From assembly GCA_030390025.1 (NCBI GenBank), contig CM059427.1, positions 186,434,001-186,498,000 on the forward strand: a stretch of DNA of 64,000 nt. Reading direction: 5' to 3'. The position numbers and the translations under genes are program-made. This stretch comes from Squalus acanthias (Eukaryota). The notes below the pieces were generated by a model. It was not told the origin of the DNA and did no database searches. It saw only the letters and a program-made list of their open reading frames with translations. Of the stretch, positions 175 through 64,000 are shown one piece after another (positions within the stretch are counted from its first letter, which is position 1; every line of letters begins with the position of its first letter).

Positions 175-514
175 GAAAACCAAATCATATTTATTTTTTG
201 GATAACGAAGATAACATTCTATTAAAAGGACCTGACTATCCTGGGATGGCCCTGTTGTCTGGGAATGGAAACCACAGTCAGAGTGAAATATCCAGCGGCT
301 GGTTACTTTTCACAAAAGGAGTTCGGGCTGGTGGGACGCACAATGGAACGATCACTATAGAACAGTGACTTGTACCAAAGGATAGAATGGGATCCTGATA
401 CCATTAATCTGAGAATTAGAAATCCCACATTTAAATTTGCGGGATCGTTCATCTTGACTCAAACACAGCTGAGTAATAAAACCCTGGAACAGTACGAAAT
501 ATTTGGGATCAAAG
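175..514 (+). pseudogene. Copy A exon D1, cysteine-free V-like Ig domain, frameshifted
   Basis: AG at 173-174 and GTGAGT at 515. 340 bp versus 342 bp for the paralogous exon 57679-58020, about 90% identical. Confidence 0.9.
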
Positions 515-3832: not shown

Positions 3833-4102
3833 TTGAGTCGAGTCTACAGAGTGCTGTGGTGGGCAGTGACGTTACACTCAGCTGTACCATCTCCAAACTC
3901 TCAGATACAGTCAGTCTTCAATGGAAACAGAGAAACTCATCTCAGCAGAACAGGAGCAACACTGATCAGATCCGACTAAATAACACAGTCTATCTGATAG
4001 TCAAACATGTTGCAGTAGAGGATAAGGAGTTGAACGCGTGTGAAGTGCAGGAAAATGGATCCATTATTCTCACAGGAAAAGCAGATTTTTATGTGGATCA
4101 AT
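3833..4102 (+). pseudogene. Copy A exon D2, C2-type Ig domain (VTLSC...W...NAC)
   Basis: ttttcacAG acceptor and GTAAGT donor, phase 1/1, 270 bp open frame. F-strand YxC has become NAC. Confidence 0.9.
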
Positions 4103-10163: not shown

Positions 10164-10514
10164 ATTTATTTGGGAAGAGTTACTCACTTTATCGGTCAGG
10201 CACAGATCACAGTGAACTCGACCTAATTTGTTATCATTATTATAATTATGTTCACTCTCAAAATCATGCTGCATGGACCTGGAGGTCACATCATCTTCAA
10301 TATCGGGAGGAAGAAATAGCATTTACTTCGAAATCTCAGCTCATCAATGTAGACAGGACCTACTTTGGGAGTCGACTGGTGCCCACAGAGACAAAGTTTA
10401 ATGGCAAGAACTTCAGTGTGAGGATTGTCCCTGTGCTGTTTGAAGATGCCGGAGTTTACACATGTTCTCTGGGATCAAATAACATGATGACCATTAAATT
10501 AATCACAGTTAAAG
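10164..10514 (+). pseudogene. Copy A exon D3, V-set Ig domain (LDLIC...AAWTW...EDAGVYTC)
   Basis: Open frame LFGKSYSLYRSG...IKLITVK with canonical V-set motifs and GTAGGA donor at 10515. The polypyrimidine tract ends in ttgtAA, not ttgtAG. Confidence 0.85.
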
Positions 10515-10592: not shown

Positions 10593-10862
10593 TCACAGCT
10601 GAACCATCTGATGCAGTGACTGAGGGAGACACCGTTACCCTGACCTGCTCTGTCTCTGATGTCAATGAATCAATGAGACTTGTTTGGATCAATAGTGATG
10701 GCAAAACTGTTGGAGAAAAAACATGGAATGGATCGAATGGGGAAGAGAAATCATTGAGACTGATTATTCAGAAAGCTGACAGAGGCAGAGGGAACTGGAT
10801 ATGTGCTTTGTTTTATCAAAACAGTCCCCAGGTTTTAGTCCCGTACTATCTGGAGCCCAGTG
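10593..10862 (+). pseudogene. Copy A exon D4, C2-type Ig domain with WxC F-strand (VTLTC...W...GNWIC)
   Basis: tttccacAG acceptor and GTAAGT donor, phase 1/1, 270 bp. Separated from D3 by a 78-bp intron. Confidence 0.9.
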
Positions 10863-20598: not shown

Positions 20599-20702
20599 TG
20601 AGACCACTTCCGGAGATTTGGGTCATCACAGTTTCGGGCTACTTGTTGGTTAAACTGGGCGTTGCTGTTGGACTAATTTGCTGCTTGAAGAGGATGACCA
20701 GA
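20599..20702 (+). pseudogene. Copy A transmembrane exon (VRPLPEIWVITVSGYLLVKLGVAVGLICCLKRMTR)
   Basis: cttcacAG acceptor in phase 1, matching D4. Hydrophobic 24-aa span with a central Lys, then CC and basic residues. GTAAGA donor in phase 0. Confidence 0.8.
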
Positions 20703-22558
20703 GTAAGAATTTCTTTAAGCTTTCCAGTAAATCAGGAATTAGTGCCGAGCTGTCACTTGACTCTGAGAAACTGATGTTCGTTGAACAGATATTATGTGGT
20801 CACAAACTGTATTTTAAAATTTCATTTAAATATTGTACATTATACTGAATTTAAAGTAAACATCACTTAAATGAAGCAATTGTTCAAATTTGGTGAAATG
20901 TTATAGCTTTGAATATTTTTCCTGATTCAAACGGCAATAAATTCCCTGCTCCAACTTTCCATCAGGCTCTGAGGAAGGAATCAGGGCGATCTCGGAGGGC
21001 CATACCTGATTATTAATGAATGGACAATGCTCAAACTAGGAGCCCAATCTTTTAATATTTTTCACTGATTATCACGAATATTCCTCTTTTAAATTAGTAA
21101 CTTGATATTTGTCAGAAACCAGTATTTGAGCACAACCAGTAAAAATTACAATAAAAGGAAACTACTAATGTATTCTGTGACAATTAATGAGTTTGATCAT
21201 TTTAATGTGTGCTGTTATTCTTGTTGCTGTGACCTGGTGGCGCTAGAGAGCTGCAGTAGTGTTGGGGCCTAGAAATTAATTTGTCGCTCTGTAAACCACT
21301 TCCTCTGTGGCCAGTTTGGTTCACCTGATTTACTCAAAGTCAAATCTCAGTCGATTCAAAAGCCAAGTTTCTGTTTCGGAGAGCCCTGTCGTGTTTGTGT
21401 TCGAGAAAGGAGTGTTTCAAGTCTATGTGGTTCTGGGTGAAGCGAGGCATTGTAGAATGGGAACTATTGGGGTGAGAGGCACAGAAATGTGGTAACTAGT
21501 GGAAAGTTTGAACTGACATGAAGGATGTGAGGTAATCTGTATTGTTCAGGATGTTTACTTAGAATGACATAGAATTTACAGCACAGAAACAGAACATTCG
21601 GCCCAACTGGTCTGTGTCGGTGTTTATGCTCCACACGAGCCTCCTCCCACCCTACTTCATCTCACCCTATCGACATATCCTTCTATTCCTTTCTCCCTCA
21701 TGTACTTATCCAGCTTCCCCTTAAATGAATCTGTATTATTCGCCTAAAACACTGCATATGGTTGCGAGTTCCAGCGAGGAAGGAATAGGGAAATCTCTGA
21801 GGGCCAAACCTGATTATCAATGAATGAAATAAAGACAGAAAATTAATGAACATTGCTCACACTAGCAGCCCAATATTCTAGTTTTAAAATTTTCATTTAA
21901 TTTACTATCACAAATATTCCTCTTGGAAATTGGAAATTGGTAACTTGATTTTCGTCAGAAACCAATATAATTTGAACAGATGTTTGAAAATGCACAACCA
22001 GTAACAATTACAATAAACTGAACAGTACGACTGTATTTAGTGAAAATTTATTTTGATAAACTTTACATCAGATCACAGCTCAGGGACGTAATAAAAGTGA
22101 CAGAATCAGTAGCTTTAGTAGGAGAGTATTGTTCTGTCAGAGGCAGAGTTGTAAGTTCAAGGAGGTAACTTTACTGGTGAGGTCAGTCGACCACAGGGAG
22201 AACCTCTTAGGAATGTGATAACACTATGGCCATGAACTTCGAGCTCAATGGTGTGACCTTATTTTACATACATTCATACATTCATTGTAGGAAAAATCTT
22301 CCACAGTATCTTCTATCAATAACTGGAGTTAGTTTATCATTTTAATCAGGTCTGTTCCTTCCAATTACTGAAGCCTTGAATTGTTGAAATTATCTCATTA
22401 ACACTGAGCCAGTGATGTGTGGGTCATGGTCTGTTCTGTTCCCCATTCTGTAAAATTACTGCTCTATTCAACTTCGTCTTTATCTATCACTTCCAGTCCA
22501 GTGTTTATTATTGAAGGATAAGCTCTTTATTTAAAGCACATTTCTTGCCTCTTGTCAG

Positions 22559-22666
22559 ATATCGAACAGCTGGAATCCACACGAGGTGACAGGAAATGAA
22601 ACAGATGATTCACAAGAAGCCGTCGCATTACAGACCCTGAACTCTGATACTGATCTGAGATCATAG
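22559..22666 (+). pseudogene. Candidate terminal cytoplasmic exon (ISNSWNPHEVTGNETDDSQEAVALQTLNSDTDLRS*)
   Basis: tttcttgcctcttgtcAG acceptor, phase 0 compatible with the TM exon, TAG at 22664-22666. A possible AATAAA lies at 23340. No independent support. Confidence 0.5.
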
Positions 22667-25081: not shown

Positions 25082-25282
25082 CCAGTTCTGTTGAAAGGTC
25101 ATTGAGCTGTAACATTAACTCTCTCTCTCCACAAATGCTGCCTGTTCTGCTGAGTATTTCCAGCATTTTCTGTTTTTATTCCTCTTTAGCCATGTTGCAT
25201 TAATGGGGAGGGTACATTTCCCTTTTCGTTTGACTCCATTCTTTTAACCATTTATGGGAATGCATCCAAGGTAATGGATCTG

Positions 25283-25753
25283 TGTACATGATAAACCCCT
25301 TCGAATCCAGCACAGCTCCAGTCCTGTACATGATAAACCCCTTCGAATCCAGCACAGCTCCAGTTCTGTACATGATAAACCCCTTCGAATCCAGCACAGC
25401 TCCAGTCCTGTACATGATAAACCCCTTCGAATCCAGCACAGCTCCGGTCCTGGACATGATAAACCCCTTCGAATCCAACACAGCTCCAGTCCTGGACATG
25501 ATAAACCCCTTCGAATCCAGCACAGCTCCAGTTCTGTACATGATAAACCCCTTCGAATCCAGCACAGCACCAGTCCTGTACATGATAAACCCCTTCGAAT
25601 CCAGCACAGCTCCGGTCCTGGACATGATAAACCCCTTCGAATCCAACACAGCTCCAGTCCTGGACATGATAAACCCCTTCGAATCCAGCACAGCTCCAGT
25701 CCTGTACATGATAAACCCCTTCGAATCCAGCACAGCACCAGTTCTGGACATGA
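25283..25753. repeat. 42-bp minisatellite, 11 full units plus a partial unit
   Basis: Unit TG(T/G)ACATGATAAACCCCTTCGAATCCA(G/A)CACAGC(T/A)CC(A/G)GT(C/T)C, head-to-tail with no spacers. Confidence 0.97.
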
Positions 25754-26942
25754 CGAGACGGCTGAGCCAAAGCCTGAGATTGTTCTGTGTGAAACTTTCA
25801 GGCCTTTGATCTGCTCCTCGCTTTCATAATAAACCTGGACTCACTTCCCCAGATTCTGGGTCACAAATAGTTTATCAAAATGTACAGAAGTATTACAGTG
25901 AATGAAAATGAGGCCAAGAGAGATTCCCTCAACTGAAGTGAGGTGTGATCTGGTTGCTGAGTCGTCGCCTCCTAATCCAAGTTCGGAGAGTCCCTTCTCA
26001 TCCATTGTCTGTTCCAAACTGAGGAGAATCTGTGGGAGATGAGTGACTAAATATCAAACTGTGTGGGAGAGGGAGGTCATTGGGAGGGGGACGGCCCATC
26101 ACCACCTCAGGTGCCAGTGCTGCCCTCATCCTGAGAATAAATATAAAAAGGATCCTTTTTCAGTGTGTATTTTCCAGAAGTTTCCTCCACAGCCTGCATT
26201 CTGCAGGGAAATAAAGTTTCTTCTCATCTCTGTCCTCAGGTTTCATATTTTTACTGAGCTCCTCTAGTTTTTTATTCATAAATCAACTTAAACTACCTGC
26301 TCACACCTAAATTGTCAGTCGCTCTCATCATTTTAAAGATTTCAATCATGTCATGTGTCCCCCTCAGTCTTCTTCATAGAATCATAGAATGGTTACAGCA
26401 CAGAAGGAGGCCATTCGGCCCGTCGAGCCCGTACCAGCTCTCTGCAAGAGCACTTTAGCGAGTCCCACTCCTACGCCCTTTCCCCGTAGCCCTGCAAATT
26501 GTTTTCCTTCAGGTACTTATCCAATTCCCTTTTGAAAGCCATAATTGTGTCTGCCTCCACCAGCCTCTCAGGCAGTGCATTCCAGATCATCACCACTCGC
26601 TGAGTAAAAAGCTTTTCCTCATGTCGCCTTTGGTTCTTCTGCCAATCACCTTAAATTTGTGTCCTGTGGTTCTCGACCCTTCCACTAATGGGAAAAGTTT
26701 CTCTCGATCTACTCTGTCTAGATGCCTCATGATATTGAACACCTCCATCAAATCTCCTCTCAACCTTCTCTGCTCTAAGGAGAACAACCCCAACTTCTCC
26801 AGTCTATCCACGCAACTAAGGTCCCTCATCCCTGGAACCATTCATGTAAATCTTTTCTGCACCCTCTCTAAGGTCTTCACATTGTTACTAAAGTGCGGTG
26901 CCCAGAATTGGACACGTTACTGCAGCTGAGGCTGAACCCTAT

Positions 26943-53287: not shown

Positions 53288-53375
53288 ATGAGGCTACGAT
53301 TTTTCTGCAGCAAAATGCCAGCTGGTTTGATGTTCAGTTTCATTGTGTTTCTACTTCCGTCTGTTTTCACACAAA
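53288..53375 (+). CDS. Copy B leader exon (MRLRFFCSKMPAGLMFSFIVFLLPSVFTQ)
   Basis: ATGs at 53288 and 53315, hydrophobic signal-like core, and a phase-1 GTAAGT donor at 53376 matching the D1 acceptor. An acceptor AG at 53264-53265 implies an upstream non-coding exon. Confidence 0.75.
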
Positions 53376-57678: not shown

Positions 57679-58020
57679 GAAACCCAAATCATATTTATTT
57701 TTTGGGTGAGGGAGATGACATTCCATTAAAAGGACCGGACAATCCTGGGAATGGCCCTGTTGTCTGGGAATGGAAACCACACTCAGGGCAAGAAATCCAG
57801 CGGCTGGTTACTTTTCACAAAGGGAGTTCGGGCTGGTGGTTCGCACAATGGAGCAATCACTACAGAAACAGTGACTTATACCAGAAGGTAGAACGGAATC
57901 CTGGTACCATTAATCTGAGAATTAGAAAACCCACATTTAAACTTGCGGGATCGTTCATCTTGACTCAAACACAGCCGAGTAATAAAATCCTGAAACAGTA
58001 CGAAATATTTGGGATCAAAG
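57679..58020 (+). CDS. Copy B exon D1, intact cysteine-free V-like Ig domain
   Basis: tctaacAG acceptor and GTGAGT donor, 342 bp open frame NPNHIYFLGEGDDIPLKGP...VVWEW...LAGSFIL...FGIK. Confidence 0.9.
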
Positions 58021-60375: not shown

Positions 60376-60645
60376 TTGAGTCAAGTCCACAGAGTGCTGT
60401 GGTGGGCAGTGACGTTACACTCAGCTGTACCATCTCCAAACTCTCAGATACAGTCAGTCTTCAATGGAAACAGAGAGACTCATCTCAGCAGAACAGGAGG
60501 AACACTGATCAGATCCGACTAAATAACACAGTCTATCTGATAGTCAAACATGTTGCAGTAGAGGATAAGGAGTTGTACGCGTGTGAAGTGCAGGAAGATG
60601 GATCCATTATTCTCACAGGAAAAGCAGATTTTTCTGTGGCCCAGG
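60376..60645 (+). CDS. Copy B exon D2, intact C2-type Ig domain (VTLSC...W...LYAC); gene continues past the window end
   Basis: Canonical phase-1 splice sites, 270 bp, about 96% identical to 3833-4102. Confidence 0.9.
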
Positions 60646-63600: not shown

Positions 63601-64000
63601 GCCCCCAACCCGCCTCCGTGCCATCTTCCCAGGAGGCGGGTAACCGACCCGCGCTGGGAGCCGCCTCCCCGAGGCGGGAAGGGGATTAGTGCCAATTAAC
63701 TGCCTGTTAACAGGTAGTTAACAGACAGTTTTTTTGAGCATCCCTATGTTCAGCCCTGAAGTGTGGGCTTCCCGACAGCTCCGAACCACACCAGGGCCAG
63801 CGAGGCGGGCCGTCGGTCTGCGGGGGTTGGAGGGGTCGAGATGTCTGGTGTGCAGGTGAGTGATGGGTGCAAGTGTGGAGAGATGAATGTGTGAGGTGAA
63901 TGTAAAGTGTTTTAATAAGTTTTACTTACCTTTACTTCTTCCTGCAGGCTTCATCCCTTCAGGTCTCGGGAGTCCCTCATCTCACCGGCACAGAAAGCAG

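Follow-up and report, generated by a model that had tools for sequence, protein, structure and literature searches.

Mammalian killer cells judge their targets with paired on/off receptors. An earlier note on 64,000 nucleotides of Squalus acanthias DNA (the whole stretch analysed here, referred to as the window) pointed to a lysine within a transmembrane (TM) helix, followed by a short tail free of tyrosine, and proposed an activating receptor whose ITIM-bearing inhibitory paralogues may lie elsewhere. How sharks balance activation and inhibition in innate immunity is an open question, since a 2014 screen of cartilaginous fish gave neither LRC-type receptor nor FcR-gamma homologues (PMC4016189) and no NITR evidence is reported for the class (bioRxiv 2021.06.11.448072). 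The TM and tail exons are predicted, with a probability of about 0.75, to be the anchor of an activating-type member of a tandem paired immunoglobulin (Ig) receptor family with DAP12-type coupling.

Organization of the locus

The window is repeat-rich vertebrate DNA that holds two tandem Ig-superfamily gene copies, A and B, both on the + strand. The ectodomain of copy A is encoded by a D1 exon for a Cys-less V-like Ig domain (175..514), found by tblastn and by alignment with D1 of copy B, a D2 exon for a C2-type domain (3833..4102), whose frame is open and which carries Asn where copy B has the F-strand Tyr, a V-set D3 exon (10164..10514), and a C2-type D4 exon with WxC in strand F (10593..10862). 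All of these lie on the + strand, as do the TM and tail exons that follow. No extra Ig exon was found by tblastn between D4 and the TM exon, and in one-cassette homologues D4 is spliced straight onto a Lys-type TM. Copy A is a complete one-cassette Lys gene, and the 30 kb that separate it from the next gene contain no ITIM exon. Throughout the window, neither tblastn with 67 proteins nor a profile of 58 ITIM-type C-termini (best i-E 1) identified ITIM-type TM or tail exons.

One-base deletions near 246 and near 361, together with a TGA at 284-286 in the homologous frame, break the D1 exon of copy A, and the D3 acceptor of this copy reads AA rather than AG, with an in-frame AG 36 nt inward (ending at 10199). 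These lesions make it most likely that copy A is a pseudogene, the term already used in the earlier note. Skipping of D1 and D3 would preserve the frame, and D1-less or D3-less isoform models exist in the family; copy A could still be expressed in this way.

Copy B comprises a signal-peptide exon (53288..53375, + strand; tblastn E 8e-10) with ATG and GT donor, an intact, Cys-free D1 exon (57679..58020, + strand) with 90% DNA identity to that of copy A, and an intact D2 exon (60376..60645, + strand). Its D3 and everything beyond, TM included, lie past the window end at 64000, and the intron self-alignment between the copies reaches about 63480. Exon identity between A and B tracks that of the flanks (D1, 90 versus 88–89%; D2, 96 versus 93–95%). 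The D1 exons differ by 25 non-synonymous and 4 synonymous codon changes, from which no diversifying selection is read because copy A is broken. D1 of copy B has no Pfam match and no PDB sequence match. Among 32 proteins D1 varies more than any other domain, with a mean identity of 46% against 63, 53, and 62% for D2, D3, and D4, and this Cys-free domain is likely the ligand-binding one.

Other features of the window include a minisatellite-like tandem repeat with a 42-base unit and several open frames (25200-25830), and numerous LINE-like fragments in the introns and in 22700-53200, which lie on both strands and include parts of reverse transcriptase and endonuclease. An Rfam scan of the window gave no match. 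The intron between the TM and tail exons carries a short internal duplication (20971-21197 and 21776-22057, 67% identity).

Transmembrane exon and tail

The segment IWVITVSGYLLVKLGVAVGLICCL is encoded on the + strand inside an AG/GT-bounded exon of 104 nt (20599-20702), entered in phase 1 and left in phase 0. The mid-membrane lysine is confirmed in this spliced exon; it lies in a YLxxKL motif, its codon, AAA, occupies 20652-20654, and, counting from Trp, it takes position 12 in a hydrophobic stretch of 23 residues. The tail exon, also on the + strand, starts in phase 0 at 22559 and runs through 35 codons to a TAG ending at 22666, without Tyr, Cx(C/H), or (F/Y)xxL(D/E). A profile of the region after D4 from 25 Lys-type homologues, scanned against 3127 six-frame peptides of the window, matches the TM and tail exons with i-E values of 3e-21 and 2e-10, the third-best match having 1.2. 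A search of the TM exon against the PDB returned chance matches only (best E 0.56).

Two observations identify 22559-22666 as the genuine tail exon. Alignments to it with scores of 67-147 were obtained for 8 of 26 Lys-type homologues, and its final residues recur at the end of two catshark proteins. The 35-residue, tyrosine-free tail of the earlier note holds for the exon, which has neither ITIM nor ITAM, but the cytoplasmic part amounts to about 40 residues, five of which come from the TM exon. Read-through into the intron after the TM exon would likewise give a Tyr-free tail. The possibility of a truncated ITIM tail was not supported, as seven of eight ITIM tails aligned like shuffled sequences and the score of the remaining one was equalled by 6 of 300 shuffles. 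Truncation of the tail end by a repeat is ruled out, since the catshark orthologues terminate at the same point. The juxtamembrane CC of the earlier note is present in the window copy but occurs in 6 of 26 Lys-type homologues, and is regarded as incidental rather than as a family feature.

Homologues and transmembrane classes

A D3 query retrieved 59 proteins, exclusively from sharks and rays. A profile search gave 150 matches, and the figures drawn from it rest on 120 among the matches listed. A full HMMER search gave 61 proteins, including those of chimaera, coelacanth, sturgeon, bichir, and eel, and an eel query gave 36 teleost proteins. Nearly all of the homologues are annotated as uncharacterized or hypothetical, with a few generic automatic names such as obscurin-like. 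The set used for classification consists of 129 named elasmobranch records from 22 species, taken from the matches listed; these are automatic gene models, isoforms included, and the set is exclusive of chimaera, bony fish, extra cluster members, and the short Heterodontus record P0087.

A hydrophobicity scan assigned 61 of the 129 records to a class with neutral TM and ITIM, 22 to a Lys class without ITIM, 6 to a neutral class without ITIM, 5 to an Arg class without ITIM, and 2 to an Arg class with ITIM; 33 had no TM call. Scoring against the TM exon of the window, with the Lys position left unscored, identified 26 homologues in 14 of the 22 species (scores 69-147, the next class reaching 41). 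All 26 have the lysine, and Y, L, K, L, and G are invariant in the pattern Y-L-x-x-K-L...G. The lysine is shared by sharks and rays, and so is not private to the window copy. Lys-type tails are short and variable in the gene models (0-45 residues after the TM), and none of the 26 contains an ITIM or ITAM. ITIM-bearing paralogues do exist elsewhere, as the earlier note had anticipated: 55 of the 61 ITIM-type records carry two ITIMs, and ITIM forms are present in all 14 species with a Lys form. No Lys form was seen in 8 of the 22 species. In the catshark Scyliorhinus canicula an ITIM locus (LOC119965406) and a Lys locus (LOC119965407) are numbered consecutively and apparently lie on the same contig. 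Intact Lys-type orthologues are found in the catshark (XP_038652086) and the sevengill shark (XP_067851889), and XP_038652085 is an ITIM form. Conservation of the lysine, motif-free tails, and the existence of ITIM paralogues support the assignment of the window gene as a putative activating member.

Other charged forms were also observed. Five Mobula proteins (P0007, P0029, P0035, P0135, and P0189) have an inhibitory-type TM with Arg near the outer end, where the ITIM-bearing sawfish relative P0025 has Gly, and have lost the ITIM part of the tail. Their Arg placement is like that of FcR-gamma partners, and they are nested in an ITIM clade of the D3-D4 tree; they would constitute a second activating-like type. 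Among the 36 teleost records, 25 have an ITIM and five (P0192, P0202, P0203, P0204, and P0207) combine an outer-end TM Arg with a short ITIM-free tail; eels and salmonids have the paired design too, on a different TM. Sturgeon and bichir records P0084 and P0088, with a neutral TM and a short tail containing IYDNV/IYEN-type tyrosines, belong to neither the ITIM nor the Lys type. The accessions of the reedfish member P0129 (XP_051786094) and of the nurse shark member P0020 (AGQ17915, obscurin-like in GenBank) lie near those of CD8 records (XP_051786116 and AGQ17914, respectively; PMC10768021). These are weak hints that the reedfish gene is linked to CD8 and that the nurse shark sequence was deposited alongside CD8 sequences.

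Ectodomain and comparison with CD4, LAG-3, and G6F-like

The ectodomain is built of a V-C2-V-C2 cassette, repeated one to four times per protein, in which D1 is V-like by model only, having no Pfam hit. Cysteine is missing from 110 of the 146 D1 domains; 148 of the 169 D3 domains contain two, as do most D4 domains. WxC is present in 170 of 176 D4 domains and in none of 162 D2 domains. The AlphaFold model for the sevengill orthologue, built on an 18-sequence alignment and with a mean pLDDT of 81, has four Ig domains and one TM helix, with a single strand spanning each V-C2 junction (residues 124-138 and 331-346). Its top natural Foldseek matches are LAG-3 (8dgg, 7tzg) and CD4 (1wio), at ~16% identity and low global TM-scores of 0.25-0.33. 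LAG-3 and CD4 also stand near the top of PDB sequence searches, with B7-H3, CEA, and pIgR close by, and neighbours in the language-model Atlas, which serve as leads only, include contactin-2, G6F-like, CD4, and LAG-3 clusters. The D3 search reached one named non-family match that was looked up, lungfish XP_043935555, which is called LAG-3 in the supplement of PMC10768021.

With CD4 and LAG-3 the family shares the V-C2-V-C2 order, the WxC of D4, and, in the model, the junction-crossing strand that has been described for those receptors (PMC10768021). In contrast to them, it has a Cys-less D1, a D2 without WxC, and charged-TM forms, is multigene, and repeats its cassettes. The tails differ as well. 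The LCK motif Cx(C/H) of CD4, as defined in PMC10768021, is absent from the window tail, from the 26 Lys tails, and from the 61 ITIM tails; the (F/Y)xxL(D/E) motif of LAG-3, defined in the same source, occurs in 2 of 61 ITIM tails and is absent from the window and Lys-type tails. Identity as CD4 or LAG-3 is ruled out by these tail motifs. Catshark CD4 is on chromosome 16 (PMC10768021 supplement), while the receptor family lies on a 244-Mb contig, probably one of the largest chromosomes, and apparently on a different chromosome from CD4.

Fish G6F-like, a near-top language-model neighbour, resembles the family in its four Ig domains and in YxN, which is present in 40 of 61 ITIM-type tails here. 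G6F-like signals through its own ITAM together with YxN, the Grb2-type motif of G6F (PMC3528668). The shark family, in contrast, has no ITAM in any of its 61 ITIM-type or 26 Lys-type tails, which rules out this identity, and there was no G6F-like record among the sequence matches listed.

Pairing of Lys-type and ITIM-type ectodomains

Quick trees were built from the membrane-proximal D3-D4 unit with 89 and 67 rows, the latter omitting 5 outgroups, 5 Arg-type rows, and 12 isoform or long-branch rows. In neither tree do the Lys labels group together: they change 17 times on 89 rows and 18 times on 67 rows, where shuffled labels give 19.1. A single clade of Lys-type ectodomains, forced on the 67 rows, is 1200 log-likelihood units worse and is rejected (AU p 1.5e-37). 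In 7 of 23 Lys records the same-species ITIM partner is 90-99% identical over D3-D4, a signature of paired receptors; in 11 of the 23 the best same-species ITIM form is nearer than any Lys form of another genus, and the reverse holds in 12. The pattern suggests that a single old type of TM exon has been combined with many lineages of ectodomain, as exon exchange would give, a process described between paired receptors (PMC5112662); conversion, recombination, or re-duplication may have produced it here. Chimeric gene models may add to it.

Adaptor and proposed mechanism

In the proposed mechanism, inhibitory members, with a neutral TM and usually two ITIMs, would recruit phosphatases. In activating members the central TM lysine would pair, inside the bilayer, with the two aspartates of a dimeric ITAM adaptor, likeliest a DAP12 orthologue, and, by mammalian rules, the adaptor would provide surface delivery and Syk-family signalling. 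Ectodomain exons would have been repeatedly swapped or re-duplicated between Lys and ITIM types, so that paired forms may bind the same ligand. Such repeated exchange would be expected of activating copies that act against pathogens exploiting the inhibitory ones.

By analogy, an adaptor-coupled activating design is very likely, and DAP12 itself is the probable adaptor. Type I partners of DAP12 carry Lys at 7-12 of a 20-23-residue TM, while FcR-gamma partners have a TM Arg near the outer (N-terminal) end and DAP10 pairs with NKG2D (PMC1440944). The window lysine, at 12 of 23, falls within the DAP12 range, at its edge; a DAP12-type dimer is therefore the best guess, and the list of DAP12, FcR-gamma, DAP10, and CD3 in the earlier note can be narrowed accordingly for this putative receptor.

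Alternative explanations

An activating receptor that works through CD3/zeta, DAP10, FcR-gamma, or an unknown membrane protein is somewhat unlikely. Another adaptor is conceivable because the invariant Y, L, L, and G that accompany the lysine in all 26 homologues exceed what DAP12 partners need, as these share the Lys alone (PMC1440944), and no report of shark DAP12 was found in the searched literature; the combination of a type I protein with a central Lys, however, is the DAP12 pattern rather than that of FcR-gamma or DAP10. The short-tailed form might instead be a non-signalling decoy that competes for ligand, its lysine serving retention or self-association, for which the variable length of the tails and the putative status of the adaptor could be adduced. 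Retention of a buried lysine across 14 shark and ray species argues against a decoy, and the separate Arg-TM short-tail forms of Mobula and teleosts fit repeated selection for adaptor coupling; we consider the decoy very improbable. It is also quite unlikely that the near-identical Lys/ITIM pairs come from a single gene with a choice of TM exons, or from chimeric models. P0186 and P0150 are indeed almost identical (D3, 113/114; D4, 86/87), multi-cassette models are possibly read-through of tandem genes, and P0022 has a TM in mid-protein. Every close pair nevertheless differs at some residues and has separate locus numbers, and the complete Lys gene of the window is followed by 30 kb free of ITIM exons; alternative TM exons would in any case result in opposing signals all the same.

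A prior description of the family, as skate MDIR, fish DICP, or under another name in subscription journals, is likewise unlikely, although a nurse shark member has been in GenBank under the obscurin-like name. Clearnose skate MDIRs (ABC86796-9), compared here by their description, are a multigene family of activating and inhibitory Ig receptors in a cartilaginous fish, as is the present one, but they resemble CD300, TREM, and pIgR (PMC3031540), in contrast to the likeness of the shark family to CD4/LAG-3. pIgR is the best PDB match of D3 alone (E 1e-4 over 40 residues), pIgR matches being weak, and the whole-protein fold in the model is nearest LAG-3/CD4. CD300/pIgR domains carry an extra Cys pair. 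Central TM Lys with a short tail versus an ITIM tail, clustered genes, and ectodomains common to both types are shared with DAP12-coupled paired receptors (KIR2DS/KIR2DL; fish NITR and DICP), from which the shark family differs in its scaffold, its own adaptor and ligand being putative. DICPs include four-domain forms with charged TMs, but all DICP domains have C23 and C104, and D1/D2 domains usually four conserved Cys (bioRxiv 2021.06.11.448072); a D1 that is mostly Cys-free and D3 and D4 with mostly two Cys rule out this identity. No MDIR- or DICP-named record stands among the matches listed (59, 120, and 36). No prior description was found in the literature, including the available parts of PMC10751288, PMC6795676, and PMC3964593, most subscription immunology journals being outside this scope, nor in supplements (PMC10529500 and the searched part of PMC3964593). 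The family is apparently unnamed and undescribed, a provisional conclusion.

Significance

The window copy is probably dead, and it is the family that carries the value. The paired-receptor design is familiar; in this family it sits on a CD4/LAG-3-like scaffold. Activating forms appear to have arisen more than once, with Lys in elasmobranchs, Arg in Mobula, and Arg in eels and salmonids, and the family reaches coelacanth and teleosts. With intact candidate pairs now named in catshark, sevengill shark, sawshark, skates, and rays, the questions of the adaptor and of an MHC ligand are directly testable. A bolder and unlikely possibility is an ancient origin of the family as a third branch within the CD4/LAG-3 clan, with an MHC ligand retained and a role as a KIR-like missing-self system in sharks and many bony fish. 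If so, ITIM members would sense self MHC and DAP12-coupled members would be remade repeatedly against pathogen mimics. Such a system would fill the place of NK-type receptors, which have yet to be found in cartilaginous fish, and would suggest that CD4 and LAG-3 descend from paired receptors.
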